Shown here piece by piece: positions 1,645 through 55,910 of a DNA stretch of 64,000 nucleotides. The DNA is taken from contig OX597832.1 of assembly GCA_951406725.2 (NCBI GenBank), positions 65,720,001 through 65,784,000 of the forward strand. The letters are read 5' to 3'. The stretch's first letter is position 1, and every line of letters starts with the position of its first letter. A model generated the notes under the pieces. That model saw nothing but the letters and a program-made list of their open reading frames with translations. It made no database searches and was not told where the DNA came from. The translations under genes and the position numbers were made by a program. The stretch is from Octopus vulgaris (Eukaryota).

Positions 1645-1646
<2 letters not shown>

Positions 1647-1722
<76 letters not shown>

Positions 1723-3088: not shown

Positions 3089-3120
<32 letters not shown>

Positions 3121-3124
<4 letters not shown>

Positions 3125-3460: not shown

Positions 3461-3462
3461 TA

Positions 3463-3514
<52 letters not shown>

Positions 3515-4436: not shown

Positions 4437-4476
<40 letters not shown>

Positions 4477-5532: not shown

Positions 5533-5581
<49 letters not shown>

Positions 5582-10689: not shown

Positions 10690-10865
10690 CTTTTACTTGT
10701 TTCAGTCATTTGACTGCCGTCATGCTGGAGCACTGCCTTAGTCGAACAAATCGACCCAAAGAATTATTCTTTGTTAGCCTACTACTTACTCTATCGAACC
10801 GCTAAGTTAAACGGACGTAAACAAACCAGCATTGGTTATCAAGCGATGTTGGGGTAAAAAAAATA
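10690..10865. mobile_element. SINE-like repeat family B
   Basis: TTTACTTGTTTCAGTCATTTGACTGC...CATGCTGGAGCAC shared with 30128-30345. Confidence 0.85.
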
Positions 10866-10882
10866 CACACAGACATACATAC

Positions 10883-18424: not shown

Positions 18425-19812
18425 GGTGTTAGGTGTTAGCTATAAATTCCTTAGCAGTTCCAGTTGTTACTTATAGCTACAATGTGTTGAACTGGAATAT
18501 GAGTGAAGTAAAGAATATAGATAGGAAAATACGCAAGCTGCTGAGTTGTAATAGGATGCACCACCCAAAGGCAGACGTAGATCGCCTTTACCTTCCCAGA
18601 GCCCAAGGAGGTCGAGGCCTGATCCAATTTGAACTAGCTTACAAAACAACCACAATTGGACTGGCCAAATATCTTGAAATAACGAATGACTGGATGCTAA
18701 AGCTCGTGGAAAATCACGAGAGACGAAAGAAGCTTCATTCTATCATAAAGGAAAGCAAAAATTTTGCTATTGATCTCATGCAGGATACCCGAACTGAACA
18801 ACCCGAGGGAAGTACGGCAACTATTGTTGCAAAGAAGGTAAACATAATGGCAACGAAAAAAGCGCACGAGCAATTGGCTGATAGGTGGGAGGAGAAACCT
18901 CTGCACGGCAAATATGTGGCCCGCAGCAAACAAGCTGATGTTGACCAGAAGCAAACCCATCAGTGGCTACGGAGCTCAGGGCTAAAATCAGAGAGCGAAG
19001 GTTTCATCCTGGCTGCTCAAGATCAAAGCCTATTAACCCGGAACTACCAGGCCAATGTGATGAAAAATGGAGCAGACCCAAAATGCCGATTCTGCAACGA
19101 CATGATTGAAACAGTGGACCACCTAATCTCTGGATGTAAAGTCTTAGCACCAGTGGAGTATAAATTAAGACATGACAGATTTGGCCAATATCTACACTGG
19201 CTAATAAGTCGGCATTACAATATCAAAACTGCCGACAAGTGGTATAATCACCTCCCTGAGGCTGTAACTGAAGGAGAAAATGTAACCATTCTGTGGGACT
19301 TTCCAGTACATACAGACCGAACCATTCAAGGCCAATAAACCAGATATTGTTGTGAAAGACCAAAACAATAAAGTTTGCTTATTGATCGACATGAGCATCC
19401 CCTGTGATCATAATATCTCAGCGAAAGAGTTTGACAAGCTCAGAAAATATAAAAGACCTACTCATTGAAATTGAGAAAATGTGGCATCTCAAGGCGGTTA
19501 CAATACCAGTGATCGTCGGAGCACTAGGAATGATCAAGAAGGGAACCGAAAATTATATGAGAATGATCCCTGGCTTACCATCCCTGCAAGAAGTGCAAAA
19601 GATTGACTTAACTGGTACATCACACGTATTGAGAAGAGCATTGTCGATGTGAGAACTGTTGCTGCTCATGTATTTTAATTTAACTTTAAAAAAAAAAAAA
19701 TGAACGAACTATTGAGTTTGGTTTAATGGCCTACCAATGTATACTATGAGTTTCTTTGCCCTAGGAGTCGGGAAGACACTCGGCAAGAAATGGAAGCAAA
19801 TTTGAAAGTGGA
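18425..19812 (+). mobile_element. 5'-truncated R4/Dong-clade non-LTR retrotransposon (RT thumb, CCHC knuckle, restriction-like endonuclease), frameshifted
   Basis: ORFs 18433-19338 and 19404-19652 contain RLYLPRAQGGRGL, ILAAQDQ, CRFC..ETVDHLISGC, RHD, ILWDF, a frameshifted NKPDIVV and PVIVGALG. Flanked by (AAT)n. Confidence 0.9.
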
Positions 19813-19967: not shown

Positions 19968-19984
19968 CATTCGTTTTCATTTCT

Positions 19985-20750
19985 ATGCTTAATACTGTGT
20001 CAGATTCTAATACTTAGTATCTGATTGAGTATGGACTATAGAAATGAAAACTCAAATTGAGGAGTACATTAGACGGTGAGAAAGTTAATGAAGACGAAGT
20101 TAAGTGGCAGAATCGTTACTTAGATACTGAGCAGCTTTTGTAGATTGGACACAAACTAAATTAGTAAAGCTAGGCAGAAGAAATCGGAAGCAATTTCATA
20201 TGAACGAAAGACTCCACCGAAAGGCAGGAATAGTAAAAATATGCTTACCTAAAAAGGAAGTGGGAAGAGGGCGGACTTAGCTGGAGTAGATATAGACCTA
20301 TGACAGTAATAGTGAATAAAGTTTATTACGCGTTGCTTGTGTCTCGGCAAGACAGTGAAAATGAAAAACCAAATTAAGTTACAAAACCAGAAGAAAGACA
20401 AAAGTTATCTGACTGGCAGGAAAAGGCGTTGCATAGTAGGTTCCCAAAGATAGTTGCAGCAATCAGTAGTAGTGAGACATGGTTATGGTTGCAGAAAGGA
20501 AGGCTATAAATGGAGACAGAAATTTTGTTGGTAGCAGCATAAGATCAAGTATTAATGACTAACTAGATAAAAAGAAAGACATGCAAAACCAAGTAGATTA
20601 CTAATGTAGGTTTTTCACATCAAAAGAGGAAAGTGTTGTTCATATACTAAGTGAATGTAGCATAGTGGCACAAAAAGAATACAAGAAAAGACATGAGTAA
20701 TCCCTTGGAGTTAAGTAGAAAGCGAGAATTTGAACATACTAATAAATGGT
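19985..20750 (+). mobile_element. Older, degenerate R4/Dong-type fragment
   Basis: Translates to LHRKAGIVKICLPKKEVGRG, ETWLWLQKGRL*METEILLVAA*DQ and YKKRH, colinear with the 18433 ORF. Confidence 0.75.
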
Positions 20751-21780: not shown

Positions 21781-21782
<2 letters not shown>

Positions 21783-22283
21783 GGTCACAGAAAAGGTCAC
21801 AGAAAACGAGAAAGCAACCATACTCTGGGATATGCCGATACACACAGATAGAGAAATTAAGGCCAACAGACCAGATATAGTTGTCAGAGATCATGAAGAA
21901 AAAAAATGCTTTCTAATTGATGTATCAATACCGGCTGATGACAACGTGTCTCTAAAAGAAATGGAGAAACTCTCAAAATACAAAGACCTGGAAATAGAGG
22001 TAACTAGAATGTGGAATCTGAAAACAGAAACAATTCCTATCATAGTAGGTGCATTAGGCATGATAAAAAAATATTCAGACAAATACATAACAAAAACACC
22101 AGGACTTACAAACACATATAACATACAGAAAATTGCACTACTAGGCACTGCACACATCCTACGCAGAACACGTTCCATACAATAACCATCAGAGCATCAC
22201 AACAAATCACAGCACATACCCAAGGCACACAGAGCTGTGCTCGGTAGTGAAGTGAAAGCACGCTATAAAAATAAAACTACTGA

Positions 22284-22519: not shown

Positions 22520-24060
22520 ATAGATATGTTATTTGTCGAGTTAAAACTGAAAAGTGAAAGAAAACTATTCCATCAAATTTTTCTCTGTTGCTTATTGAGG
22601 TTTCTGTTAGAAAGTAAAAATAATGAACTTTGGACAGAAATGTTACCGCCGGACAAGGGATTTCGACCTGGGAAATCCCAATGGCATTTAATTCGAGACA
22701 CACTTACTGAAGTCATTCACATTCCTACATGGATATAAACCAGTAGTCTGGTTACGTTCACTGGTGACGTCTTTGTTGTCTGGGATGTAAGTTTGGGTAT
22801 GTCTACATTGGTGTTGAGAAGATTTAATTATTTTTGTTTAATTGATTTCTTGCATTTCTGTAACTCTTATGCTAAAGACAATGGCTTTAAGTCTAACAGA
22901 ATTATGTCTAAATTTTCAAATACTAGCGTTGAGGTTTCGGAAACATAAGTTTTCTGGAGTTATTTTGCAAGACCATATCATAACACTTTTACTTCCACCG
23001 TCACTCCGATCACTCACATAGTATTATTCGATAAAATCCGAAAACCTAATTTTTTAGGATAAAACGGATTTGTGCTGAGATTGGGGATTACTGGAAACAT
23101 GCAACTACTTTTGTACACCATTATGTCAAACGTAGTTACAGTGAATCCCAATAAAGAAAATGGCAATTGACGAAGCTAAGATTAACAAAAAAAATCAAAT
23201 TTTCACATATAATTTTAGAAAACACAGTACAATATGTGACAGAATTTCTGGCACCGAAATTTCGCTGGTGTTTCAAAAGAGCTGTATGAAAATTACCATC
23301 ATGTTGCAGCAAAATATCCTCGTTTCAAACAAATATATCCTCATCCGCCTATTGTAGCATTTAGACGGAATGAAATTGTAAGAGAACTATTAACCTCTCC
23401 TTCTGACTACAGGAAAAACTGACATTGCTGTATCTGCACGCTGTACCTTGAAAATCAGCCGCAAGTGAGTTAAACCCTGTTCAATGTGAAGAAGAGTAAA
23501 GTGAATTCCATTAGGAATCATAACAGAAATGTTATGATTTACACAAAAGGTTGGACAAGTAGAGATTCGCATTTGGTGTAAGTAGCAGAATACATGAAAC
23601 GCAAATTGATTTATGTTGGTTGTACAAAAGCACACAATTACACAAAAGATTTAATGGACTCATATATGACGTCAGGTACAATAACAGTAGTTCAACAGAA
23701 CTTGCCAGACATTTTGCATCAAACGGCTGCAATTTTCAAAAAGACTTGAAAGTGCAGATTCTCAGAAAATATCATTCTGAATCAGATACACTTTCAATGC
23801 TCAAAATGCATGATGAGAAATATATTTGCGGGTTACTGACTTCACGCCCTGGAGGAAAGAATAAAACAACAGAATTGCAACAAATTTACACAAAACTGTT
23901 TGATGAAATATATTTCTTCTTTTTCCTTTTCTTTCTTCTTTCCGTTTCTATTTTCTCTTTTTTTTCTTTTCGCCAGTTGTAAAATTCAAACTTGAAGACT
24001 AATGGTGTCTTTCCATCAACGCATGGACGTTGGTGGCTCTCGACCATACTTTCGATTTGA
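22520..24060 (+). mobile_element. Degenerate Penelope-like retroelement (RT + GIY-YIG relic)
   Basis: Near 22735, KPVVWLR/FTGDVFVVW matches the PLE W.RYIDDIF motif. At 23600-23870, LIYVG...QLHKRFNG...ELARHF...DLKVQIL...KYI..L.T..P.G.N is a typical PLE GIY-YIG C-terminus. Confidence 0.75.
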
Positions 24061-27250: not shown

Positions 27251-28187
27251 CTCATACATCTAGTACGGTGGGATGCCTATTTGTCTTACCTTCCCTTTCT
27301 TCTCCATTTCCAGTCAGGTGGTTGTTTTGTGCCTTTGTGTATGAATGTTTATTTTTCTATTTTATGTTGCATAGAATGTTTGTTTCCTAATCTGTTTTTT
27401 GACTTGATAACTTCTTCGTATTCTTTCTTATATATTCTTAGTCTTTCTACATTCAATAGTCGTATTCGGCTTGTGAAAAACGAAAATGTCTCCTCTTTCA
27501 TTTTCTGATATATTTATATCAAATGTACATAATGTATCTTCAATTACGAAATATAATTACCATGTCTGTCATTAAATTATTTGCTTGTTTACTCCATATT
27601 TCTTTTATTTCTGTTTTCGATGATCTCTTTTACGTTAATTAATTTAAAAAATAAAAGCGTGTTCTTCTATTCACATTTCACCGTCTGTAATTACATTGTA
27701 CCAGTGTACAAATTTACCCGTCGAGTGCCAAACAGCTATTTACTAAGAATTAAACTTAAGTAAATTTAGTTACGATAACAGTATTAAACATGGTGATCCA
27801 TCATTCATTCAGCTTATCTATGTTTATCGTTTGATTTATAACTGCTATTGACATAAAGTACAAGTCGAAAGAAAACCGTATCAAACATACATATATATAG
27901 ACAAACATTTATACGTATGCAGCGACATATCTTTAGAAACCTAACAGACTTGTGTCTCCTGAAATACTTGTAGCAATCTATATCGATCTGGTATGAAGCT
28001 ACAAGACAAAGAAAAGAAATACAATAAAATAGAATAGAATAGAATAAAGTAAAACAAGATAAGATATGATAAAGTGGGGAGGTAAAATACAGCGAATATA
28101 GAATATAATACAGGTAGTTTAATACACGGAGGTTTAATTTTCTTTAATAGCTTATTGGATACACACACACACACACACATACATGTA

Positions 28188-29824
28188 TATTGTAAAAGAT
28201 CATGGATATAAAATCTTTAAAGTTTCGTGGATACAAATGCTTTCAAAAGTTAAAAGGTTTTAAAACTAGTTAAATTTGAAGCAGCAGACTTCTGGTGTGT
28301 TGTTGATATGTGCGAGGTAGAGTTTGACCGTGCTGCTCTGTCTAGATCTTCAGCCGGGTAGGACAGATCTACTGATGTTGTTTCTTTACTGGTTTCCCGC
28401 CATGAACTGTAGGGCAGGTCAAAGTATTCTTCATTCTGCTGGTTGTATCCCTCTTAATCATTTGTTCTACAGATAAACAAGAAATAGAGTCCCGATTCAG
28501 TTAATTTTTTAAATAAAAATGAAGGAAACCTCAGACATAGGAGAATAGCTGTGAATACACCATCAGAAAATCAGGGATCACTGAGCTCATATTCCGTCGT
28601 CTATAACGCCGAATATTATCTTTTCAAATGTGAATATATTTTGGGGCATCAAACTAACATTGACGCGCCGAGTGAATTGAAATATAAATGTATAAATATA
28701 TATTAGAAATTAAGGTAATCTCGAATAAAGTTGAGTATGTGCGAAAACAGTTTTAGGAAATCGGGTAAAATACCTCTGCAGAGAGAAACAACTGTTTAGG
28801 ACTCTATACTGTGAATCGAACTCTGTGCGTCTCAAATCCTGGATGAGCACTCTGCAGTATTGAAACAAATGTATTTTGTTTTAGAAGCTATAATATTTAG
28901 CGTCATAAAAAGACGGATCAGTTTTCAGAGTGACTAGCACAGAGAGAGATCAGCAGGCCTTTGAGAGGAAAAGAGTTCGATTCACTGTAGCGCTTGCTGC
29001 CCTTTTTTCGTTTCCGTTTGTAGGGTGTATTTTCCTAGCTATTCTCCTGCGTTCTAGATTTCTTTCATTTAACATCTGTAGCTGTATCTCAGGTAGCATG
29101 GGTGGAATTTAGTATGAATAAAAGAGTAACGCTGTTAGGAGGGTTGTTAGGGAGAAAGGTGAGAAATAGTATAAAAAGCAATAAAGTATAAAAGAATCAG
29201 ATACAATAAAGCGTGGGAATTGAAATGAAGTGAAACAATATGGAATGCAATAGAATTAGAGAAGTAGAAGTATCAACAGCAATGACAACGATGACAGATG
29301 AGCACGTGACGACAAGAACAACAATAGAAACAACTATCATGGCGGTTACAACAACTGCCACAATAGAAACAACTATCATGGCGGTTACAACAACTGCCAG
29401 CTACAACAATACCAACCACTACAAGAAACACCACGACAGCAATGAAAATATCTGGACTAGCATCGCAGACTGAAACTTTAGACGCTCCTTTGGTCGTTTA
29501 AAGTTTCTATCTGCAGAGGTATTTTACCCGATTTCCTAAAACTGTTTTCGCACATACTCAACTTTATTCGAGATTTCCTTAATTTCTAATATATATTTAT
29601 ACATTTATATTTCAATTCACTCGGCGCGTCAATGTTAGTTTGATGCCCCAAAATATATTCACATTTGAAAAGCTAATACTCGGCGTTATAGAAGACGGAA
29701 TATGAGCTCAGTTATCCCTGATTTTCTGAAGGTGTATTCACAGCTATTCTCCTATGTCTGAGGTTTCCTTCATTTTTATAAAACAAATTACCTGAATCGG
29801 GACTCTATTTCTTGTTTATCTGTA
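28188..29824. mobile_element. Fold-back element 2 (about 322-bp arms at 28468-28789 / 29503-29824, about 713-bp spacer, unique tail 28188-28467)
   Basis: Long, high-identity inverted repeat, e.g. CATTGACGCGCCGAGTGAATTGAAAT pairs with ATTTCAATTCACTCGGCGCGTCAATG. Confidence 0.92.
29321..29398. repeat. 39-bp perfect tandem duplication
   Basis: ACAATAGAAACAACTATCATGGCGGTTACAACAACTGCC x2. Confidence 0.95.
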
Positions 29825-29835
29825 ATGAAATCTTC

Positions 29836-29875
<40 letters not shown>

Positions 29876-29878
<3 letters not shown>

Positions 29879-30079
29879 TTAATAAATCTTAGGGTAGCAA
29901 AGAAAATTAGAAAAATTCTTTGCTACCAGTGGTCTAGCGAGAAGGAAAAATTAATCAATAGACTATATATTGTTCATAGAAAAATACAGTGTACATTTAA
30001 ACACATAAGAGGTGACCATAATAGGTCCTATTATGGTCATCTATTATGTGTTTAAATGTACACTGAATTTTTCTATGAA
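29876..30079 (-). mobile_element. Fold-back element 3 (53-bp arms 29973-30025 / 30027-30079; unique segment 29876-29972)
   Basis: Near-perfect palindrome with 3 mismatches, centred on ATAGG-T-CCTAT. Flanked by (TA)n. Homologous to element 4. Confidence 0.92.
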
Positions 30080-30127
30080 TTATATATATACACATACATA
30101 TGTACATATATATATATATATATATAC

Positions 30128-30345
30128 TCTTTACTCTTTTACTCTTTTACTTGTTTCAGTCATTTTGACTGCGGCCATGCTGGAGCACCGCCTTTAGTCG
30201 AGCAAATCGACCCCAGGACTTATTCTTTGTAAGCCCAGTACTTATTATATCGGTCTCTTTTGCCGAACCGCTAAGTAACGGGGACATAAACACACCAGCA
30301 TCGGTTGTCAAGCAATGCTAGGGGGACAAACACAGACACACAAAC
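30128..30345. mobile_element. SINE-like repeat family B, well-preserved copy
   Basis: (CTTTTA)n end followed by GTTTCAGTCATTTTGACTGCGGCCATGCTGGAGCACCGCC; at least 7 homologs in the window. Confidence 0.85.
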
Positions 30346-30353
30346 ATACACAT

Positions 30354-30410
<57 letters not shown>

Positions 30411-30798
30411 TATGTATGTATGTGTTTGTGCGTGTATGTATGTCTATCTCTGCATATGTATATATATGATGAGTGCTGAAATATCCCTGGTTTTAAAGGT
30501 GTCGGAAAAATCTTGGTTAGAGACTCAACTTTGCGAGTTCTTTGCAGGGCTCAGAGCAACTGAAGGACCGCTTCAATAAGTGTGCGAATCTGAAAAGCGA
30601 ACATGTTGATTAAAATCATAGCGAAGAAATTTTCAGCACCACTTCATATATATATACTTCCCATATAAAAGCATAATTGTTGTTGCCCACCAATATTATT
30701 GTTATTGTTATTCATTATTTACATATTTACTGCCAATGATAATAATGGGAATAATATGTATATGAATATTTACTCATTTATCATATATATATACATAT

Positions 30799-30985
30799 AG
30801 TTGAAATTTACAGAAAAACAAAAGGCGAAGATAGGTGTATAAATGACAAGCGGGTGTATTAGCGTGTCGCTCGAGATGGTGAGAAAGTATTTTACGTTTC
30901 GAGTCTATGCTCTTCAATAGAAAGGAACACGATGAAATAAAAAGAGAGAGAATAAAAGCTTCTGCATTTAGCGTCAGTCATGGTG
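30799..30985 (-). mobile_element. Short PLE pseudo-LTR-like repeat with minimal hammerhead-like motif (copy 2)
   Basis: Homolog of 372-545. Minus strand reads TTGAAGA-GCATAGACTC-GAAAC-GTA. Confidence 0.55.
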
Positions 30986-31839
30986 GTGTGTGTATGTTAG
31001 TGTGTGTGTGTGTTTGTGTGTATGTCTGTGTATGTATGTGTATGTGTGTACGCATATTATGTTTAATAGATATGGATTGGCTTTATAGTTCTGCTAGAAA
31101 CTTATACACTTTCTCATACATGTGGTAACGGCGAAAGTCTCTCGAAATGATCAGAGAGTTACAATGCAAGCTGATACTGCCTTGATTCTTTCATAGGATT
31201 TCATCGAATGTTTTGCTCTTTTCAGCTTATAGATATGATACGAATCAAACGACGCTTTGCCTGATGATTTTTAACATAAAGAAGGACTTGCCAAAGCAAA
31301 CCTCACTCGCCAAATATAGTTTTGATTGTAGAATTTCTAGCTCACGATTATTTGGGGGCATTTACACGAACAGAGAAACCATTTGACATTAAATGTAAAA
31401 GCAGTCGCCGTGTTTACATTAGTTTTCTTTTTCTTTCTAAATATAACCTATTGTCTCTGACTCATAACCATTTGATATTTCAGTCAGTACACATTTAATT
31501 CACCCTTTGTCAGGGCTTGTGTTTCGTTCCACATGATGTCCCATGAAAACCGCTCTCGTTAGCAAGAAGGCTAGGTCGTGTTGCTTACTTGTTACCCGAC
31601 ACTCCCACCATGTGTCAGTCACATGGGTTGATTGTTACCAATGACGTCTTGTTTGACCTCAAATATCTCCTGCTGAAGTCGGTTGCGGAGTTTCATATTC
31701 AGAAAACCATAAAACTTATCCCCTTCCGTGTCTGCTATTAGCTTTGGCATTTTGCTTCTAGTGTTTCTGAACAAAATGTTGATGTCAACGCTGTTATTTC
31801 TGTTGTTACTGGTGCTTTGGATTACTTTGATAGGTTTCG

Positions 31840-32345
31840 GCCATGTCTAATTTAAAAGCATCACATGGTGAAGTATTTTAGTTATATATGGGGTACCATG
31901 GTCGACTCTGGCAAAGAGTTATTATTGTTGGAGACATATCTGGGTGTAGTAGGTTGGTCCGGAATTTTTTGAAGAAATTTGTCCTGTGAACATTTGAATT
32001 TTATGGGAACCGTTTCCATTTTGACTTATTTTGGTAAGGTATTAAAGAGATCTGGACCAGTTGAAGTAAAGTAGTTGTGTCGTATTGGTATGTGTTCTGA
32101 TTTTTGTAGTGTGTCGATAGCACGGGGACGAAGTTTTGGGTGCATTTTAAAATTGATGCCAACATCATTTGTGTAATATTGATGGAATATTTTCCACACC
32201 ATGCAAATGATGCGGCGCACCTGGCAGTGTTGGAGAGAGAGTAGAGATTGAGTTTGTTTTTAGTCTACCCCAATAGTCAATACTTGTCATACCGTCTATT
32301 TTTCTTGTTATTGACCTCTGAAGAGCTTCCAATTTCATAATGAGT
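31840..32345 (-). mobile_element. CR1/L2-group LINE 3' ORF2 fragment
   Basis: Minus strand: LEALQRSITRKIDGM...YWGRLK..LNLYSL...VWKI...GPDLFNTLPK. Confidence 0.75.
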
Positions 32346-32883
32346 TGCTATATTTTGTTACTGGTTTGGGTGATGAAAGCAATTGAGTGTTACGCTCCAT
32401 TGCTTGATAATTGCAACTCCATTAAGCTTTGGAGTTTTAAACTGAGATAAGGCAGCAATTGTTCTGCAAAGACGTAGATTCGGAGGTTATCTCGCGTGAG
32501 GTAATTTGATGGTTCATTACTGTGAATTGAGTCGGCAGCGAACTAGCAGAATCATAGGAGCTTTGGATACACACCTTGTCGTATTCTTTCTGGCTCTTTA
32601 GGCTATGTGTGTGGGTTTGTGCGTGTGTGTGTATGTGTGCGTGCGTGTGTAGATGTATGTGTGTGCTTGCATGTGTGTATATAATATGCATATGTGTGTG
32701 TATGCATAATATGTATATATGGGTGTGTGCATTTGTGTATGCTAATAGACTTATATGAGTATATGGACATGTGGGTGTTCCAAAAACACAACAAAAAAAA
32801 GTCAGGATGATTCCGATTGGAACGAATAAGTTATTTCAGTTAAGGTGACCTGAAGCTAGACTCCTCCCACCTTCATCAATAAA

Positions 32884-32884
<1 letters not shown>

Positions 32885-32954
<70 letters not shown>

Positions 32955-33000
32955 AACAACAACAACAACTACTACTACTACTACTACTACTACAACTACA

Positions 33001-33047
<47 letters not shown>
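32885..33047. repeat. (CTA)n/(CAA)n microsatellite
   Basis: Direct reading. Confidence 0.95.
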
Positions 33048-33664
33048 CTCCAAGTGTATACAGCGTTCATTATACAATTGTAGTTATCATGAATCGATAT
33101 TAATTTCTCTAAGTACGGTTAATAAAGTTCTTCTGAATGTGTTTATTCGGTGTGCTTGTGTCTGTGTGGTATGTATGATTGGTGCATGTATGACTGTTTG
33201 CATGTGTTTCTTTGTATATGTGTTGTGGGTGTACTTCTGCGTGTGCGTGTAGTTTTTTCGTGTGCGTATATGATTCCAAAGCGACAGTATAACTTTATTT
33301 CATACGTTTGAGACAACAAAATGATAACCGCGAGCAATTGTTTTCAGGACGGTATTGTATAAATGGTTTCCCAAGAGCTAGAAATTTAGTAGTTTATCTA
33401 ATAAATCATATTCCCAGACATGAAAAGTTACAAGTTTAAACATGGTAGCTATAAAATATCTCGGCAAGGATAACATTAAATAAATCAGGATAATCACTTT
33501 TTCTAGCTTTTGTTCACCGGTTTACTCAAGAAGGGTAGCAACAACAACATTAAGATAGAAAAAGAAGCCATTTGCATAGTCGCTTAGTCTGCTAGACATT
33601 ACCGTCAGATTGCCCTCATAATACATTGTAATCAATTAAAACAGCGAAAAGAGATATTAAAGAA

Positions 33665-34530
33665 TGATTTCAAATTTTGGCACAAGGCCTGCAAGAGGTA
33701 AGTCGAACACATCCACTACAGTTCTCAACTGGTACTTATTTTATCCACCCTGAAACGGACGAAAGGCAAAGTCAACTTTGGCAGAATTTTAATTCAGCAC
33801 CTAAAGACAGGCAAAATGGCGCAGAGCATTTTGCCCGACGTGCTATCGATTCTGCCAGCTTGCTGCCTTCAGAAAATATTAAACACTCCTTTCTACTAAA
33901 GGCACAATGCCTGAAATTTTCGAGGAGGGGGTATGTCGATTACATCGATTCTAGTGTTTTACTGGTATTTAATTTATCGACTCCGAGGGCATGAACGACA
34001 GTCAACCTTGGCCGAATTTGAACTCGGAACGTAGCGATAGATCAAATACCGCCAATAATTCGTCCAGCTTGCTACAGATTCTGCCAGCTCACAGCATTGA
34101 GGAAATATTAAATGAGCTTTTTTTATTCTAGTCACCAGAGGAAGAGGGGGCCAGTCGATTAGATCGACCCCGGTACGGAACTAGTACTTTATCGAAACAA
34201 TCAAAGTCGACTTCGGCGGAATAAGGAGACATTGAATGATGCCGTCTTAAATATGGTATATATTAATTTTGTCATATGTAAATTCAACAACTACAACAAC
34301 AACAACATAAAAAACAGTTTGATATATTACTTTGGAGGGAGGACCAACGTTTATAGATGGTGTGTTTCTCAATGGTATTGGCCCCAGAAATTGTTGGGCA
34401 GGTTATTTTATATACATCCTTGAAGGATGAAAAGCAAAATTGGCATTAGAAAGATTTTGACTCAGATTGCAAAGAACGGGAACAAACGCAGCAAACCATT
34501 GTAACCGACGTCTGGTGATTCACTTCGCTC
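33665..34530 (-). mobile_element. Cluster of about four SINE family C copies or fragments
   Basis: Repeated CTGGTACTT/ATCGAC/GAATTTGAACTC/GATTCTGCCAGCT motifs. Confidence 0.7.
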
Positions 34531-36254
34531 GAAATCTTCGGCAACATTACAAGGAACACCAATGTCAGGCCTATGTTTCACTTTAATGAATGTTTGCAAG
34601 GCGGGAGTTTTACCCTTAATATAACGTATTAATTGCAAATATGATATGTCGACCGCCTTCACCAACATATATGTACATTAGTTTTCCGAATTGTCAGTTG
34701 TGTACTGATCTCAGATAAAACAAATCATACAGATAACACCCTTATCAGTTTATCGTATATTTAATTGTCTGACATTGTCCGCAGAAATACAATTAAGCAA
34801 AATACTATTATCAAATAACTACCATTAAATGCACATTTCAATTCGATAGAGACACTTGCGAGAGAATGAAGGAATGAAATATTATAAAATAATACAATAA
34901 TACTTAGTTTCATTAGTCATTAATACTATTTATGTCTGATTTATTCGTTGTGTCATCATGCTTATATGACATTCATTTATATTCAATTGCTGGGTGAGTC
35001 TTTATAATTTTTGTAATAACTTCCAAATATTGCCGAAATTAGAATATGAAGTTAGTAATTGTCATATATATTTACTTTTAGCAGAACTAAAGCTGGAGAT
35101 TATTTTAAGTTGTCTTGACTTGCTAGGAATAGCTACCACCTAGTCTACATATCAACTACCAGAATCTGAAGCATGAGGCGAAGAAATATTGGAAAATATT
35201 GTCCCCAGTTTATATATAAAATATGAAATGTAAAGTGAAGCAATTTTGTGTATAGTGCTGCTACCTCACGGCTGGTTGGGGGCTGAAATATAAGAATGCA
35301 TTTCAGCATTTACACTTTGCAAGTAAATAGGGTTAATTTATTTATTAACCTCTGGGATGAATGTAATCGACACATTCCCCTTGCCTTGCAAAAGGATGTG
35401 GGGCCTCGTTTCTATGGTGAAAACCATTATAGTAGGATTATGTCGATGGAGTAAAAGAATTTAGTGAATGGGCGACAATTTAACGCGTAGCATTTACCGC
35501 CGTTTATTCACGTTCACTGTTGAAATGGCATTAGAATCAGTTTAGTCGTTGAACATGGAAGGGAACAATGAAAAATAAAGTAGAATTCAATATAAAGAAT
35601 GGAATCAGCTACAGATTCACTCAAAATTTGTGAGCTTCTACCAATGAGAAAGAATAATGTTAAAACGAGTGTCTACCAGTACTTAGGATAATGGCTTTCC
35701 TATTTCGAAGACGCACGGGGGCAAGTTTGACTTCCATCACCAAAACTTAAAGAAGTAAATATTAGTTCAGTACTAGTGTAATGTAGTCGGCTATATACAT
35801 AAACCGTCCAAAACCTGTTGTTTATGCCATTGTTTAAAATCAATTTTAAAATTTATGAATCATCTGTTGTGTTATAATACGATACAAAATTCATATTTAT
35901 TCAAATGTGATATATATCAAATTTTTATTCGACTTGACCACCCACCTTTATAATATTATTCAAATTCGAATATTGAATTAGTCGTTGCTATTAAATTTAT
36001 CATCCGAAAGCGGAGAACTTGCAGAGTTGTTCGGTCATCGCCCTTTGTTCATGTACCAGCTCAAATCACACCGATATAAATGCTGTATTTCCTGCTTCCA
36101 GGGACCACAAAACATAATGCCAGGAAAGAACTAAGGACGATATCATAGACTATACTACTTTAACAAACATTAAACTCAATTGAAATTATGTTGTAACTAA
36201 ACATATATAGAGAGGTGATTTGGTAGAGGGAAACTGAAAGAAACATGCCGTATA

Positions 36255-36667
36255 TATTTACATTTCCAGTGGTCTAACGTTTAAAAAATTTAGTCTAACA
36301 GACTATATATTAGTCATACGATATAGTGTATATTTAAACACATGAGGAACCACTTATATGAATCCAACACGCTAGAAAGAACAGCTAGGTTCTATAACCA
36401 CAAAAATTAGAGATAAAATTCGACAGGAACGAAACGAAAACTAAAAAACATTTTACCATCTAGATTTCCTGGACCAATTGGTTTCTGACTCGCTAAACTA
36501 AAATCAGAAACCAATTGGTCCAAGAAACTAGATGGTAAAATGTTTTTTTATTTTTCATTTCGTTCCTGTTGAATTTTATCCCTAATTTTTATGGTAATAG
36601 AACCTAGCTGTTCTTTCTAGCGTGTTGGATTCATATAAGTGGATTCCTCATGTGTTTAAATATACAC
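36255..36667 (-). mobile_element. Fold-back element 4 (about 163-bp arms 36326-36488 / 36504-36667)
   Basis: CACTTATATGAATCCAACACGCTAGAAAGAACAGCTAGGTTCTAT is perfectly mirrored. CCAGTGGTCTA...GACTATATATT...TTTAAACACAT is shared with element 3. Confidence 0.93.
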
Positions 36668-36669
36668 AA

Positions 36670-37448
36670 CTAGCAGCATAGCCCGGCGTTGCCCGGGTAT
36701 GTAAGAGCCCCTAGTAGGCAACGACTAATCCCAATCTAGTATTTTCCCTCTAGGGAACGAAGGCGCATGTGTAGGTTGCAATGTCTTCTCTTCACTCCCA
36801 AATAACTATCAAACAGCTATCGATAATTCAACCCAACCAATTCCTACCACGAAGAAATTACATCCGAGACTTTACCCCCAACACCGCCACTTCTGCTAAT
36901 AGCTGCTGCAGCCGCAAGTTATTCGAATACTTATTTTGTTTAAACTTTCTTTATAACTACCACCCCAAACGTTTTACCTTAAATTTTTGACGTACCCTAA
37001 GGGTCCTCGGACGCTACTTGCAAACTCTTGGTTTATTATAAACCGCTTTTGTCGTGTGCACTAAAAAACCTTTTCCATTCGTTTGTTCTGTTTGGTCACT
37101 TTTGACTTTTTCGTTGTTGTCACTCACATTGCTGCCCGCTTTTTTGCCGTTTTTGTACATTGTTATACATTTTAGGATACTTACCCCACGTGTTCCGAGA
37201 GTTAAAAAGGTCAAGCTGCGTCCCCTAGACAGTCTGTAGAAAATGTGTTGCATATAAAAAGCTTAGATTCTCGACCCATGTCGAATTTATCAATTTTTTT
37301 CAGAACTGGGGGAGCTTTTCAAACTTTTCGCTGCGTTAGTTTTGAATTATGACATTGGGCTGTGTGTGTCAAGTTTCATCAGAATCGGTTGAAAGCCGTG
37401 GTCAGGGTGAGGGTACAACCTGACAGGCACACAGACAGACAAACTGCC

Positions 37449-37460
<12 letters not shown>
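36670..37460 (-). mobile_element. Non-autonomous Helitron-type element
   Basis: Minus-strand 3' end is hairpin CCCGGGCAACGCCGGG, 8 nt, then CTAG|T. The 5' end lies in (TA)n and is followed by a (GTCT)n-like tract, typical of non-autonomous Helitrons. Confidence 0.8.
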
Positions 37461-37523
<63 letters not shown>

Positions 37524-37559
37524 TGTATGTATACATATGTATGTTTGTGATTGTTAGTT

Positions 37560-37752
37560 GTGTCTGTGTTTGTCTCCCCACCATCACTTCAAAACCGATG
37601 TTGTTGTGTTTACGTCCCCGTAACATAGTGGTTCGGCTAAAGGCCGATAAAATAAGTACCAGGCTTACAAAGAATATGTCCTGCGGTCGATTTGTTCGAC
37701 TAAAGGTGGTGCTCCAGCATGGCCGCAGTCAAATGACTGAAACAAGTAAAGG
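37560..37752. mobile_element. SINE-like repeat family B (opposite orientation to 30128)
   Basis: GGTGCTCCAGCATGGCCGCAGTCAAATGACTGAAACAAGTAAA. Confidence 0.85.
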
Positions 37753-38029
37753 AATAAGTAAATGTTTTAATTCATCTTCACGATATTATTAATCTTCAAA
37801 TATTTATTTCGTCTGTGGCACATGAATAAAAAGCCGAGGACGATAAAATGTTATACTAAAAGCTCTGAGCTGTTCAGTAAACGTATCATTATATTCTCAG
37901 CTCAAATCCAGTTCGCCAAACGTTAATAAAATACGTAACAGTTCCGAATGGGGGATTCACATTACTGTCATCCATATAATAAAATACTTTAGTGTTGTTG
38001 GAGATGCCTTTTGTGAATGTACATCTGAA

Positions 38030-38220
38030 GGGAAGCAGTGAGCTGGCAGAATCATAAGCAAGCCAAGCAAAATGTTCATCGACATTGCGGACGTCTTTAG
38101 GTTCTGAGTTCACATTCCACCAAGGTCGACTTTGCCTTTCACCATTTCGGTGCTGATAAGTACGGGGATCGTTGTAATCGATTGATTCCTCTTCCAAAAC
38201 TTTCTGCCCAAATTTGGAAT
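38030..38220 (+). mobile_element. SINE family C
   Basis: GAGCTGGCAGAATC...GTTCTGAGTTCA...GGTCGACTTTGCCTTTCA; the core recalls the Meta-SINE domain. Confidence 0.75.
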
Positions 38221-38274
38221 CAATATATTGGCGCTGAAATGTAGTAAAAGGAAAATGTATAAATCTTTGTCTAT

Positions 38275-38490
38275 GGGGTGTGGTTTAGTGGTTAGGGTAC
38301 CCAACTCATGACTGTAAGATAATGAGTTCGATTCCTGGTGGCGCGTTGTGTCCTTGTGCAAGACACTTTATTTCCCGTTGCTCCAGTCCGTCCAGCTGGC
38401 AAAAAATGTGTAGTACCAGTGTTTCAAAGGGCCAGCCGTGTCACGTTCAACATCCCTGAGAACTCCGTTAAGAGTACGTGTGTCTGAGAA
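38275..38490 (+). mobile_element. SINE family D
   Basis: A-box TGGTTTAGTGG, B-box GAGTTCGATTCC, then GTGTCCTTGTGCAAGACACTTTA. Confidence 0.8.
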
Positions 38491-39979
38491 ATTATAAATA
38501 GCTACTGCATAAATACACACACACACACACACACACACAGACAGACACGCACTCTCTCCCTTTCTCTTTCTCTCTCTCTCTTCTTCTCACAGAGAAGGTT
38601 ATATATGTAACTGGAAAAAGTATTAGCAGCATTTTCGCTGGGTAACGAAAAAAAAAACACTGCTTTTTTATGCATAATCCGCTTTCCGAATCATAACAAC
38701 AAATTGGGCAGAGAGTTTCTCGTCCTATTATAAACCTTGATGTTACTTTTTTTATAAGATTCGACTCTTCGGTTAACAGTTCGGTGAAGTTACAGTTATA
38801 AATCACTGCATACTTAGCTATTGACGTTTCATATCACCAGTAAACGAAGAACAACTTAGCATATAACAGTAAGGTTATATTCAAAATAATATCTTTTGTT
38901 TGGGCAAATATCTTTGTATTTTAAATTGGTTGGATCAGCGTTATATGTTGATATACTGTAATTATTGGATATTTAGAAATTATTTTAGCTCAACATGAAA
39001 TCCTAATTAAATCATATTATCGTAAGTAATGAAAATCTCTACGTGACTACCAGACAAGGGCACCGTTTTCTTTGTTTCGCTATTGGTTTTCGCAAATTAA
39101 GTTGTCATAATACAAATCAATTATGACAGGTTCTGAACCAGCCAAGGCCAAAACAATAGCAGACTTGTTATAGAGAAGAAGAGTCTTCATAATACATGTT
39201 GAAAGAAACGTGTTTTAGATATAATCTCAAAGCGTGGTCTTACTGTTAATATCAATCTTCACACAATATCTCTAGTAAATGAAATATATTGTATATAGAA
39301 ATTGCAAACAGTTTAATTCTATGGTGTTATATATTAACATATCAGTCTCTTAAAATCGCATTGTAAATCAGTTCCTTTGGGACTACATGAGTTCATAATT
39401 GGAATGTTTAAGGAAACACTGGAAGGCCATAAAGGATATTGAAAGAAGATATTATGTCAATTGAACTGTGTCTTGATGTGCTTAATAATAATTGCACAGT
39501 TCATCATTATATCTCCTCTACAGAAGAGTTTAATAAAACTGTATCTATTCATATATTGCCTTTGCATTCTTATATTAATGTCATGAATATTTGTAACGAT
39601 TTTTATAGTTATTGCTGTTACCAGGTATTCCCGGAACGTTTAAGATTTTATCGAATTTGTTTTATGAATTGTGTTTGAGATTCACTGAGATGATCTATCA
39701 AATAGCTATACTGGTTGTACAGAGAGAATCTTTTAGAATAAGAGGCTACAGACGGTTTAGCGTAAGAATGATTAAGATTGTAACTTCGCATTTCAGCTAC
39801 TTCCAACATAAAAGAATAAACCATTGGCAAGAACATGATCAACGTTTTCACTTATACTCACCCCACTGGACTTAAAGATGGAGTATTTCCCCCAACCTCC
39901 AGTTTTTAATAAGAATGTTGGTCATAAGGCAGAAATGGTAGGAAGTCTACATATATATACCTTGTATTAGCCTATCTCC

Positions 39980-40811: not shown

Positions 40812-42112
40812 CGAGGTAGTATCAAAAAGTTCCCGGACAAGTTCTGTTGCGCGCCAACAGATGGCAGTACATGGGTGAATGCACAGTGGGAGCTAGCAGC
40901 GACCTTCATGAGGCTGAGTGCCGAGTGAGCAGTAATGTGATTACTTCGTAAGTTCTGCAATTTGTCATTTTGTGATCTTGTGTATAAAATAGTCTGCGAT
41001 TTTGTCATATACAGGAAGATGAAATAAAGACCCAACGTGGAATTTTGCGTTTATCTTGGAACATCTTCTACAGAGATATTGAGTATGCTTCGGCAAGCTT
41101 ACGGCACGAGGTAATGAGTCGTATGCAATGAGTAGCACGGGTGCTTCAAAAGTGGAAGAACGTCCCTAGAAGACGACGAGCGATCTGGAAGACCTTCCAC
41201 GTGAGTCACCCACGGAAATGTGGTGAAAAGGCAATAGATGAAGAAGATCGTTGGAGGACAATGAACAACATAGCTCATGTTGGTGTGTCATATGAGTTTG
41301 TGCAAGCAATACTAACATCTGAATTGAACAAGCGTGTCTTTGCCAAGTTGGTCCCTCATCTGTTAACCACTGAGCAGAAAAAAAGAAAACATCACGTAGA
41401 CGTCTGTCAAGCTCTTCGTCGGTGTGCCGCTAATGACGTATTCTTCATTTCGCGGATCATCACTGGTGACGAATGTTGTGTCTACGGGTACGACCCTGAG
41501 AGGAATCTGCAGTCGTCACAATGGAAGTGACCGTCATCTCCACGACCTAAGAAGGCACCAGAAAGCCGCAACTCAATGAAGAGCATGCTCATCATTTTAA
41601 TTTTTCGATATCCGCGGTATTGTGCATCGAGAATTCGTCCCCAGACATTCTATCAATCTAGAGTTTAACGTTTTGAAGCGTTTGAGGGCGGACATTTGTC
41701 GAAAGTGACTAGAACTGTTGAGTGCGAAGAATCGGATTCTTGACGATAATGCATGCTGTCTCCTAGCTCTCCTCACTCGTGCGTTTCTCGCCAAAAACAA
41801 CAGAGAATCGCCTCCACACCCTCCCCATTCGCCAGATTTAGCACCTGCAGACATCGACCTCTTCCCCACGATGAAAAGTTGGCTCAAAGGTCGCTGTTTT
41901 TATACCATTGTGGAGATCAAAAGCCAATCCAAGAATGTCCTCGACTCGCGTAAGGAAAACTCTTAAAGGCCGGATTCCAAAAATGGTAGGAACGCTGGGA
42001 CCGGTATAGTGCTGTGCAAGATAACTGTTTCGAAGGCGACTATACTAAAACTTAGGTAATCAAGTTATTTTCTATTAAACATAACTAGTCCGGGAAAGTT
42101 TTGATACTTGCA
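40812..42112 (+). mobile_element. Degenerate mariner transposon, near full length
   Basis: TIRs GTATCAAAAAGTTCCCGGAC and GTCCGGGAAAGTTTTGATAC. Motifs KLVPHLLT, IITGDE..VYGYDPE and PHSPDLAPAD. Many frameshifts. Confidence 0.9.
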
Positions 42113-45246: not shown

Positions 45247-45670
45247 ATAAAGGTGAGATTCAAAGATCGAGGTGCAGGGAAAAAGGGAGCTTCAAGCAAT
45301 CCGTATCTTATTTTTTTTAAATCAGTAACCATAGTGGTTTGTTGGTGCGGAAGGTTGTAGATTTTTCCCGCATCGAAGTACAATAATCTCTAAAAAAAAT
45401 CTATGAGTAAAAGAATGGAGTAAATAAATTTCAGGTTACGTATGTTTCACGGTAAGCGAACCCTCGGAAGTAGTAAATATCCAAACATGGTGTATACCGC
45501 AGGTTATTCTTCAGGCCAACGGTATCTTGATTCTCTGAAGTTTACTTTGTCGTTCGCTTGAATGGTAGCAAGCTGTATACACATTGATTTGATATTTACT
45601 ATTTCCGAGGTTCCGCTCGCTATCAAACGTATGTAGTCTGTTTTTCATCTACTCAATTCCTAAACTTTTG
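45247..45670 (-). mobile_element. Fold-back element 6, older and diverged (arms about 45405-45525 / 45548-45670)
   Basis: CCTCGGAAGTAGTAAATATC pairs with GATATTTACTATTTCCGAGG; weaker pairing extends both ways. Abuts (TA)n at 45670. Confidence 0.8.
45434..45517 (-). ncRNA. Type I hammerhead-ribozyme-like motif
   Basis: Minus strand: GGC-CUGAAGA-[...GCGGUA...UACCGU]-GAAAC-AUAC-GUA-ACC. Canonical core and near-palindromic stem III; stems I and II are imperfect. Confidence 0.55.
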
Positions 45671-50697: not shown

Positions 50698-51967
50698 CGA
50701 GGGACGTTCAATAAGTAATGTCCCTGATCCACTTGCTGTTGGTTGATCTAGCTGAAATTTTGCACCTGCAATTATTTATATCTCTATAGATTAAGTGGTA
50801 AAGTACGGCTCTGAACTAAGCGTGGTTTCTGATTTACAGGTGTTTGAACTGAGTCAAGTGTGAAATGGAGCCTGTTGAGTGTCGAGCAGTGATCCGGGTT
50901 TTGTATTTGAAAGGACGCTCACCACGGGATACTTTTAATGAAATAAAAGTAACTTATGGTGATGATGCCCCATCATATGACTTTGTAAAACGCTGGCATC
51001 GTGAATTGAAACATGGTTGGAACTCTGTGGAAACAGCTCCCAGATCTGGTTGTCCCCCTTCTGCCATTGATGAGGCATCTCTCCGTTAAGTTGCGGCTGC
51101 CATTTTGGAAGATCGACGCATAACTATTCGCCAAATAGCCCATAAGCTCAAGACCGGGTCTGTGGAAACTATCATTCATGATCATTTTCATATGCAAAAG
51201 GATGGATTTCCAGGTTGCTCACACCTTTCCAGAAGCAAGAACGCGTCGTGTGCTCGAGGATGAATTTGAAGATATGCCAAGAATATGAGTCAAAATTTTT
51301 CAAAAGACTGATTACACAGGATGAAACCTGGGTCCATCACTATGATCCAGAGACCAAAGCTCAGTCAATGCAGTGGAAGCATCGTGACTCACCTCCTCCA
51401 AAGAAGGCAAGGGTGAAGCCCTCCGCTGGCAAGGTCATACTCACAGTCTTCTGGGACCAGGACGGAGTAGTGATGACAGATTTCCTGGCAAAGGGTACCA
51501 CAATTACAGGAGCCTATTATGCTTCACTTCTGAGGAAATTAAGAGATGTTATCAAAATCAAGAGGTGGGGTAAGATCAGCAAAGGCATCCTCCTCCTGCA
51601 GGACAACGCTCCGGTCCACAACTCGCGTGTGCTAGATCAGAAGCACAGGCGTGCGGCTATGAACTCCTCCCCCATCCCCCTACTCTCCTGGCCTTGTACC
51701 CTCTGATTTTCACCTCTTCCCAGCCATGAAGTTGTTTTTGGAAAGCGTTTCCCAGATGATGCAGCCTTGATTTCTGAAGTCAAGTCGTGGTTGGAGGACC
51801 AAGCTCGGGTCTTCTACAAAAACAGTCTTCAGAGCTGCATCAAACGATGGGAGAATGCGTAACTCTGGGTGGTTCCTATGTGGAAAAAGACTAATAACTG
51901 TGCCAAGTTTCGTTGCTCTGCTGCTATGGGAAGTGGGTCCGGGGCATTACTTATTGAACGTTCCTCG
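50698..51967 (+). mobile_element. Full-length mariner transposon with disrupted transposase
   Basis: About 37-bp TIRs (CGAGGGACGTTCAATAAGTAATG... / ...CATTACTTATTGAACGTTCCTCG) and a TA TSD at 50696-50697 and 51968-51969. ORF pieces MEPVECRAVI..., LITQDETWVHHYDPE and LLQDNAPVH; one stop plus frameshifts. Confidence 0.95.
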
Positions 51968-52063
<96 letters not shown>

Positions 52064-54931
52064 GGAATCAATTAGGTTTAGCAAAGAATTAGCGGTAGAT
52101 CGAAATAGAGTAGAGAGAGACCTGGTTAAGAAACTAGAAGAGGCACTTACCACTGGCAGCGCAATCAACGTGCTGGCTGCGAGGATGGCCCTCGACCAAC
52201 ACCTCAACGCCAAGCACGAAGGTTACGTCGTCAGAGCTAAAATGCGTGCCTTAAGGAACGAAGGGATCGAAGCTGCGCGAGAGGCCCGGGTAGCGGAGGC
52301 GCAGCGTGGCAACAGAGCCACCATCCGGTCTCTATTAGATCAACAGGGATGCAGTTTACTCGAACCCGAAAGGATGTGTGAGGCCTTTCAACAGCACTTT
52401 GCTCAACTGTTTGGTGCGAGTGGTGGGTCGGAACGCGGGATAGATCTCAGTGCCTACCTGACCGACCTGCCGCGGCTCTCGGCAAGAGAAGCGGAGTGTT
52501 GTGAAAGTCCCATCACAGCCGCTGACGTGCGTGATGCGATGGCGGGCTGCGCGAGGGATAAGTCGCCTGGATTGGATGTTTTACCCTACGAGCTCTATAA
52601 TCAAATGCCAGACTTGTTTGGCGACCTCTTGGCATCAGTCTACTGCAACTGGCAACAAAACGGGAGAATCCCCAGTTTCGTGAGCCGAGGTGCAGTGACG
52701 TTGCTGAAGAAAGACCCAACAAGGGGAATTTTATTGATAATTCCAGGCCCATCACTCTGCTCAACGCAGATTTGAAAATTTTGGCCAAAGTAATAGCCGA
52801 GAGGTTGGCGCTTGTCATTGGTAAACTGGTCGACAGGGCGCAAACATGCGCCGTGCAGGGCAGAACCATACATGACAACCTCCATCTGATGCGCTACATT
52901 GTGGACAGGGTAGTTAAGCACCCTGGCATGGGTGGGGCGCTGATCAATTTGGATCAGTCTAAAGCCTTCGATAGGGTCGACCATCGGTACTTGGCGGCCG
53001 TCCTCAGGGCGGCTGGCTTCGGTCCCGTCTTCCGCGGTTGGATCGTTGCCTTGTATAGCGGCATCCGATCGGTGATTCGGGTGAACGGCCACCTGTCGAA
53101 ACCGTTTGACTTCACGCGTTCGGTCCGTCAGGGTTGTCCCCTGTCGGCGCTTCTATATGTATTGACTTTCGAGCCGCTACTGCGGAAGCTGGCGACACTT
53201 AGGGGCATCCCACAGGAACTGGGTTGCGGGACGAGCGTGTCGACATATGCGGACGATATCATCGTCATAGTGTCGAGCGAAAAACACATCCAGATGATAG
53301 GCGAGACACTAAGAAAATACGAAACGGTGACGGGAGCGAAGTTTAACCCGGAAAAGTCAGTGGGTTTGCTACTCGGCACCTGGAGAAGCAAGCCCATGCC
53401 GTCCGAGTGCGGCTCAGTAGTGGGACGCTGGACAGACGGACCGGTTAAATTGCTCGGGGTCTAGTTCAGTCCGGACCTCCAAATGGATAAGAACAGGGAC
53501 GAGATCACGAGTAGAGTGGTCGCTCTCAGCCAAACATGGGCCGAGAGAATGCTGTCTCTAAAAGGTCGGGCGGAGGTGGCGAACGTGTACATCGCATCTG
53601 TCATCGATTATCTCCTGACCGTCGTGCTTTGTCCCGACGCCACCATCACCAAACTAGAACGCATACTTTTCCGCTTCCTGTGGAAGGGTGGCATTCCAAT
53701 GGTGAGGAGGTCCATTTGCTGTCATTATCCGTTGAATGGAGGACTAGGCATGCCGTGGTTGATGATGCGCAGGCATGCGCTGAGACTGCGACATCTCCAG
53801 AACTTCATCGATGACGGTGAACAGGTGTGGGCGCCGTGTGGGAGGCGCGCCTTCCCGCAGTTCGTCTCACTGACCGAACTGCAAACGTGGATCAGGAAGA
53901 GACCGAAACTGGGCGATTGGCACCGTGAGTGATGCCAAGCTCTACGGCAGCTCTCCCGACCGGGGTCAAACTTGTGCAACTTACAAACGACTAAACCGTG
54001 TTATAGAGGACTAGTGGAGGGGAGGTCCGACGACACACTCGGGGCAAACATGGGCGTCGACGAGAAATTCCTAACCCGCCTGTTCAGGACGACGTTCGGG
54101 CCGGGACCTATGGATAACTACCAGAAATCCCTGGCTTGGCAATGCTATCGAGACGCACTACCTGTTCGAGAAAAGAGCTACAGGCACGGTTCGAAAACCA
54201 TCACCGGACCGACCTGCCCGAGATGCGGTCAGAGCGATGAAACCGTTCTGCACACACTCGTGCAGTGTCCAGATATTTCAGAGCTGTGGACCTTCGTCGA
54301 ACAGCTGTTGTCGCGTGTAGGACGGGTCCGCTTATCGGCCGAGTTTATCGTGAATATTGTTCCACCACCTTCCTTTAAACGGGAAGGGAAAACAGTTTTC
54401 GTTACGCTGATGGCTATGGCGAAAGAATGTGTGTGGTGGACGCGTTTGAAAGCCCTGCAAACAAACACCTTCCTCTCTGATCAGTCTCTCGTCAACTTTT
54501 TCAAGTACCACTTGAAAAGGAGGATGAGAATAGAGAGGAAGGCTTTGTTAGAACGAATGTTTTAACAAAAAGTTGGTAAAAGTGGCAAAAATGGTCAGTA
54601 TGAAAGACGACACTATTTTAAGCGTAAATCTGTGACCAAAAGAGACAAGGAGAGGTAAGGTGACTTACTCATGTGTTCATTTTCGAACTGCCTGAGGTGA
54701 CCTTGGTCTTTTTTGTAGGTTTTTCTTTCCAGGGCTACACCTAAACTGTGAAATTTACTTATATATATATATATTATATTTTTATACACCACGCAACCCA
54801 CAGATCCCTATTGATCGAACCTTTTTTTTCTTTGTATGTCCCACCCATCCCACCTCGAAAAGAAAAATGCTCTACATTGTATTTCGTCCATTTTTATTCT
54901 GTGTTTAGACCTGTGTGGCCACAATAAAAAG
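52064..54931 (+). mobile_element. 5'-truncated Tx1/L1-clade non-LTR retrotransposon (ORF2 RT + C-terminal CCHC), disrupted
   Basis: KSPGLD..PYELY, LDQSKAFDRV, VRQGCPLS, YADD, GGLG and CPRC...ETVLH...C. AATAAA at 54923. Both ends sit in (CTAT)-type sequence. Confidence 0.92.

Positions 54932-55069: not shown

Positions 55070-55910
<841 letters not shown>

Follow-up and report, generated by a model that had tools for sequence, protein, structure and literature searches.

How does a short palindrome arise when two copies from one family fold back at different points? We examined this question in a 64,000-nt stretch of the Octopus vulgaris genome (assembly GCA_951406725.2, contig OX597832.1, positions 65,720,001 to 65,784,000; the window), which is AT-rich, rich in microsatellites and scattered with remnants of long interspersed nuclear elements (LINEs) and mariner-like elements. 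An earlier reading of these letters, the original prediction, held that two palindromes, elements 3 and 4 (E3 and E4), are related and that their palindrome is made anew at each insertion rather than inherited as a terminal inverted repeat (TIR). We found an outer end that is fixed on one arm, inner ends that vary, a TA target, no target-site duplication (TSD) and an E4 centre that is rare. With a probability of roughly 0.55, E3 and E4 are short, 5'-truncated head-to-head insertions of a Penelope-like non-coding 3' end, with the hairpin likely formed during integration.

Two related palindromes with different fold points

The homology of E3 and E4 was confirmed: blocks at 29926-30009 in E3 and 36266-36346 in E4 share 67 of 78 aligned bases, with five gaps. 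Their alignment scored 68, whereas 1000 shuffles reached no more than 32, and BLAST of the window against itself returned the same match at E=8.7e-8. No third copy of the family was found within the 64-kb window.

As predicted, the fold points differ. The long arm of E3 (29926-30025, plus strand, defined by sequence comparison) turns at a single nucleotide, 30026, into a return arm on the minus strand (30027-30088), which merges at its end into a TA-rich tract. The paired arms, 29964-30025 and 30027-30088, match at 57 of 62 positions over 62 bp, or span 53 bp once the terminal TA-like stretch is omitted, and their inner 13 bp are perfect. E4 extends 142 bp beyond the shared block before turning. 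Its long arm (36266-36488, plus strand, defined by sequence comparison and contig depth) and its minus-strand return arm (36504-36667) enclose a 15-nt loop (36489-36503), and the paired arms, 36326-36488 and 36504-36667, match over 163 bp at 155 of 162 bases with three 1-nt gaps, the inner 19 bp being perfect. In both elements the shared outer boundary is present on the left arm alone. The return arms stop at different positions, as had been claimed: that of E3 falls 38 nt and that of E4 60 nt short of the boundary, so that 29926-29963 and 36266-36325 occur on the long arms only. The missing outer parts were absent from the 3.3 kb downstream, where the best scores, 19 and 20, were equalled in 186 and 83 of 200 shuffles, respectively.

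The inserts are 160-400 bp in total length. Neither contains a direct repeat of the pseudo-long terminal repeat (pLTR) tandem type, which copies so short need not have, and no open reading frame (ORF) of at least 110 aa crosses either of them. The E3 arms are 92% alike between themselves, compared with a gapped 76% match to E4; only a loose alignment to E4 is obtained for the last 16 nt before the E3 turn, and both E3 arms carry the same state there. The position in E4 equivalent to the E3 turn lies at about 36360 by eye, or at about 36405 after a 46-nt gap in a MAFFT alignment. Because the E3 arms share an inner stretch that differs from that of E4, we rejected a derivation of E3 from E4 by central deletion alone. 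An assembly artefact was also rejected, since the arms differ by 6-8% and the E4 loop lies at about single-copy depth or above in all four sequencing runs examined.

Copy number and fold points across the family

Contigs from four of 24 public runs (X1, X3, X7 and X8, from four organisms) were aligned to 36060-36510 at 80% likeness, giving 2543, 2637, 1988 and 1397 records, many of them on the end of the repeat that hosts E4. Copy equivalents, calculated as depth over flank depth with both arms summed, are rough. Loose ends, base differences and individual pieces are those among the rows listed. Contigs lose rare variants and collapse hairpins, and fold frequency is therefore not countable from them.

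The family is large and dispersed, with hundreds to thousands of copies. Copy equivalents in X1, X3, X7 and X8 were 578, 400, 687 and 158 at 36268-36283 and 2729, 1695, 3551 and 765 at 36316-36331; at 36380-36395 they ranged from 478 to 6244 across the runs. Depth rose 2.1- to 2.8-fold at about 36300 in all four runs, at the place where the E3 return arm ends. Further inward it fell steadily, from 1290, 1240, 1322 and 633 at 36428-36443 through 546, 442, 645 and 454 and then 178, 211, 428 and 275 in successive bins, to 71, 83, 165 and 119 at 36476-36491, just before the E4 loop. This inward decay is as in 5' truncation. Over the loop itself we measured 0.7, 4.2, 1.4 and 3.7 copy equivalents, at least 20-fold less than in the preceding bin, and at least one diverged paralogue has the loop.

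Other copies turn elsewhere or not at all. Six joints were listed, four of them strand switches (36349 to 36416, 36349 to 36421, 36349 to 36490 and 36383 to 36458) and two of them skips; a further joint, from 36439 to 36416 with 11 letters between, carried no label of strand relation. Each joint represents one contig. Among the 32 pieces listed, two X3 contigs ran 757 and 386 nt beyond 36488 and 36484 without a listed fold, and these continuations were at single-copy depth. Given the rare loop, the other turns and the unfolded contigs, the E4 centre is not common to all copies. The claim that the palindrome is not one inherited TIR thus stood, with a loop at 0.7-4.2 equivalents against 71-165 before it. 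The opposite case, E3 as a central deletion of a palindrome common to all copies, was not borne out, as no E4-type centre is shared. That every insertion makes its palindrome anew did not follow, because a few masters and later asymmetric central deletions give the same strand-switch joints.

Alleles within the arms bear on the timing of the fold. We tabulated 11 sites in the paired arms, chosen among the differences listed; at six of them a single other base predominated in each of the four runs. At three, 36344, 36359 and 36364, the minority allele is present on both arms of E4, the other base making up 68-97%, 84-96% and 74-99% of depth; at the other three, 36411, 36435 and 36441, the left arm alone departs from the majority. 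One E4 arm thus served as template for the other, or conversion matched them, once the E4 lineage had left the family majority; decay came later. The same pattern would be expected from a palindromic master of low copy number.

Scans with family-copy patterns returned no loci in metagenomes (two scans), GTDB genomes or viral contigs, apart from eight viral loci from an 18-nt pattern, which were rejected as chance because none matched past 18-20 nt.

Target tracts, a Penelope-like reading and its rivals

Both elements lie against TA-type sequence. A (TA)n tract left of E3 (29837-29875) is likely part of its target. Between this tract and the E3 block are 50 nt that hold a perfect 12-bp inverted repeat with an 11-nt spacer (29893-29927), its right arm overlapping the first two block bases. 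In a scan of the window for perfect, non-simple inverted repeats of at least 11 bp with a loop of at most 20 nt, three were found: this one, the E3 centre and the E4 centre. After E3 comes an unrelated dispersed repeat (30099-30350), presumably SINE-like (short interspersed nuclear element), with further copies at 10650-10879, 37559-37757 and 877-959.

E4 sits at the end of a very high-copy plus-strand repeat with a decayed AT tail (36217-36265), recognized by contig depth, which we also take to be SINE-like. Depth at the repeat end (36217-36257) reached 2e6, compared with 5-48 in the flank, and the tail (36252-36265) matches (AT)7 at 11 of 14 positions. In each run, 90-135 contigs had loose ends beyond 36257 that read (AT)n(GT)n. 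Five of the pieces listed begin at 36256-36258, but we rejected a leftward shift of the outer end by 10 nt, as these letters are likely the decayed (AT)n target. The E4 return arm adjoins a non-autonomous, Helitron-like insertion on the minus strand (36670-37452), assigned from its end features: a CTAG end (36670-36673), a GC-rich hairpin about 10 nt inside (36681-36698) and a far end that runs into (TA)n(TG)n, with which the tail of the host repeat usually continues. CTAG with a GC-rich hairpin just inside is the signature of Helitron 3' ends. The host-repeat tail, (AT)n(GT)n, resumes at 37452, which places both E4 and the Helitron-like element inside it.

The return arm of E4 stops a base or two from the family motif TATAT, and that of E3 within ATATATA. 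The original prediction had taken the different return-arm ends as evidence for folding at insertion. They say little, because both ends lie at a TATA motif that meets a TA tract, where joining at that motif or later slippage suffices, and because that of E4 adjoins the Helitron-like insertion. A search for TSDs of 4-12 nt gave none at E3 and one shifted 4-mer at E4; a duplicated TA would be invisible within a TA tract. Of seven long palindromes in the window, six have an end no more than 14 nt from (TA)3+; among other repeats this holds for 4 of 26 ends, at a distance threshold set after inspection of the data. Proximity to TA tracts is thus not specific to E3 and E4 among the palindromes of the window.

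We propose the following route for a Penelope-like origin, with the RNA sense strand as we infer it. An element-encoded endonuclease would nick a (TA)n tract, and reverse transcription would proceed inward from the RNA 3' end and stop early. The new strand would then fold back, or a second priming would start from the other target end, giving an inverted copy. This copy would join the TA tract at the internal TATA motif, leaving the outermost 38-60 nt (the 'tail') absent from it. The 12-bp inverted repeat at the outer junction of E3 may be a second, small snap-back during joining, and later Helitron-like and SINE-like insertions would have landed in the same TA tracts.

Much of this anatomy is published for Penelope-like elements (PLEs). 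Passages of PMC8557442 describe PLE insertions with an inverted 5'-truncated copy, often a 30-40 bp tail at one end, and a preference for (TA)n, and tabulate such anatomy for two Octopus Naiads; excerpts of PMC8969392 restate it. In PMC11167929, where it treats the tail, this corresponds to two reverse transcriptase (RT) start sites, and cleavage in vitro favours AT-rich DNA. Sections of PMC13282606 report PLE, TIR and Helitron families in O. vulgaris. The PLEs that encode an endonuclease (EN+; Penelope/Poseidon, Neptune, Nematis and Naiad) resemble E3 and E4 in their head-to-head arms with a fixed outer and a variable inner end, their TA-microsatellite target, a palindrome at the inverted junction and many short truncated pieces, and they resemble E3, with its 38 nt, in an extra outer stretch on one arm only. 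Unlike them, E3 and E4 lack an ORF, a direct pLTR tandem and a complete hammerhead, and their inserts measure only 160-400 bp; E4 also differs in its 60-nt one-arm stretch. Palindromes at inverted PLE junctions are taken as self-priming in PMC3846280, which leaves the template strand open, and the formation of inverted ends is called undefined in PMC8557442; in both, the making of these ends is inferred, not shown. The snap-back mechanism of the original prediction therefore agrees with one already inferred for PLEs, and snap-back synthesis has also been proposed for Angel MITEs (recounted in PMC5172404), so the idea is not new. A bioRxiv preprint (10.64898/2026.07.22.740005) proposes non-autonomous PLE derivatives.

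Several results weigh against a Penelope-like origin. Membership of the family is unproven: both window copies are non-coding, and no RT or GIY-YIG sequence is tied to them. Pfam searches of 7 ORFs chosen from 41 found RT families in three unrelated LINE remnants and nothing useful near E3 or E4. The one-arm stretch is 38 nt in E3 and 60 nt in E4, while a PLE tail should be fixed. An exact-term search of the published Naiad/Chlamys consensus file gave no matches for 8 of 10 terms, although wrapped lines may hide matches; the two remaining, short terms gave six matches in contexts unlike the family, and the displayed Naiad_Obim 3' end is dissimilar by eye. The depth profile, both its inward decay and its step at about 36300, is confounded as well, since E4-private differences (36282-36299, 36349 and 36435-36465) break 80% alignments. 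Of the four strand-switch joints, three begin at 36349, one of these private breaks, so their exact junctions are uncertain, and joint overlaps of 0-2 nt fall short of the microhomology that snap-back predicts.

A complete hammerhead is likewise absent from E3 and E4. A hammerhead-like 3' half (GAAA, a 10-nt self-complementary helix III and GUC) lies on the plus strand at 36507-36520 and is mirrored on the minus strand at 36485, with the 5' core absent; such halves have a background of 3.8 per 64 kb. A relaxed full descriptor matched twice in the window, compared with 0.1 expected, in neither element and once in a palindrome at 61730-62845. Rfam, searched over 28000-38500 at E<=5, gave 53 matches with no hammerhead and none reaching the gathering score, the best over E4 being a generic miRNA hairpin. 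In PLE hammerheads, helix III is often small and palindromic (PMC4209133). Hammerheads are absent in Naiads and so are not required in all PLE clades.

The remaining points against a Penelope-like origin also favour an inherited palindrome, that of a non-autonomous fold-back DNA transposon (miniature inverted-repeat transposable element, MITE) descended from a few subfamily masters whose arms differed in length. The E4 loop occurs in about 3-4 copies in X3 and X8 (4.2 and 3.7 equivalents), as though common to a few paralogues. In one X3 paralogue, 34 other letters link 36349 to 36486, a joint compatible with deletion from an E4-like master, and many listed pieces stop at 36479-36488, as though the inner end were common. 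Centres eroded by asymmetric deletions yield the strand-switch joints, and TA slippage and nested insertions could have eroded the outer ends: the return arms adjoin later insertions or TA tracts, and their lost ends could be secondary. TA precedes the outer end of E3, a TA-flanked TIR-type element lies adjacent (28468-29824), and palindromic DNA-class repeats are known, as in frog Harbinger (PMC5625713). We nevertheless consider this origin, masters and erosion alike, to be unlikely. The terminus is on both arms in neither of two copies, although secondary loss is possible, the outer part is not regained downstream, and there is no TSD. The depth drop at the loop and the other turn points show that internal structure is not uniform, two contigs cross the fold position unfolded, and the exact symmetry of the E3 centre would be a rare outcome of random deletion. 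Palindromic MITEs (Angel, and the Xenopus Harbinger of PMC5625713) are, like E3 and E4, short, non-coding, high-copy and hairpin-forming; E3 and E4 differ in lacking a both-arm terminus, a TSD and a centre common among copies.

Alternatively, a one-armed fragment of a retroelement, or of some other repeat, may insert first and acquire its hairpin outside element replication, through host template switching, end-joining repair or conversion. Unfolded copies do exist, the 12-bp inverted repeat of flank-like DNA at the E3 junction has the form of local fold-back synthesis outside the block, and perfect inner arms with differing outer arms are what conversion near a hairpin tip gives. Host events should not favour one family, however, and both window members of the family are folded and account for all three perfect short-loop inverted repeats found in the 64 kb, which makes this explanation improbable. 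It is quite improbable that the family is a non-coding element of about 240 nt, with thousands of copies and no coding parent, whose snap-back hairpin is written at every insertion, and equally so that a second tiny snap-back of target DNA sometimes forms at the junction of such an element. The more specific proposal, neither PLE nor TIR and multiplying by DNA snap-back as in the fold-back model for Angel MITEs of fish (Izsvak 1999, recounted in part of PMC5172404), is most improbable. Family homology does stop near 36488 in all four runs, but no enzyme partner was identified and every feature has a PLE or MITE precedent. A check of whether fold points coincide with intrinsic stem-loops gave little: there are 11 short internal stem-loops, compared with 6.0 in shuffles, an excess that is not significant (45 of 500 shuffles reach 11), and the few and uncertain turns do not clearly coincide with those listed.

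The Penelope-like route also invites comparison with LINE 5' inversions, which arise by twin priming, a process that inverts an upstream part. Both involve retro-insertion with a strand switch and two primings; in E3 and E4, unlike in twin priming, the same stretch occurs twice.

Neighbouring elements and meaning of the family

Several other elements were noted in the window. The palindrome at 61730-62845 has 251-bp arms, the left of which adjoins a TA tract, and within the right one 62748-62804 can form a type I hammerhead-like fold with helices of 6, 4 and 4 bp and one core change; the palindrome is likely another head-to-head Penelope-like insert. At 55556-55655, between TA-type tracts, the sequence looks by eye like the 3' end published for Naiad_Obim. 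These two putative PLE traces elsewhere in the window favour the Penelope-like reading of E3 and E4. A frameshifted ORF remnant at 23525-23982 resembles by eye a PLE C-terminal GIY-YIG endonuclease; Pfam was negative, and Atlas gave a lead only (0.86, a mollusc cluster, 15% of whose members carry GIY-YIG). A degenerate hammerhead-like motif at 3811-3860 has kept its 5' core intact and has a self-complementary helix III of 12 nt.

The element adjacent to E3 (28468-29824) has 322-bp arms and a 713-nt spacer, and both ends read TA then CAGATAAAC; it looks like a TA-flanked TIR element of another kind than E3 and E4. Short-loop palindromes unrelated to E3 and E4 were seen at 3138-3328 (80 of 92 matched), 45413-45659 (78 of 109) and 19973-20051 (30 of 38), the first two ending at or near TA tracts. 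LINE RT remnants and two ORFs that by eye resemble pieces of mariner transposase occur at 18433-19338, 21781-22185, 52000-54565, 56296-57932, 41132-41530 and 51182-51706; within the LINE remnants Pfam reported RVT_1 at 52601 and 56955 and zf-RVT at 18433.

We found no literature description of the E3/E4 family; Repbase, Dfam and the O. vulgaris repeat library lay outside the search and may catalogue it. The structure type is already published, and the surprise is modest. As a practical warning, such inserts resemble MITEs. Thousands of very short folded copies would allow counting of fold points, junction microhomology and tail ends. The octopus has an exceptionally high share of loci that form double-stranded RNA (dsRNA), and hyper-editing (PMC5625713), and self-folding inserts could feed both if they are transcribed. 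The parentless element of about 240 nt, if true, would provide a natural fold-junction library to settle Penelope-type self-priming and ready dsRNA for a heavily editing genome.

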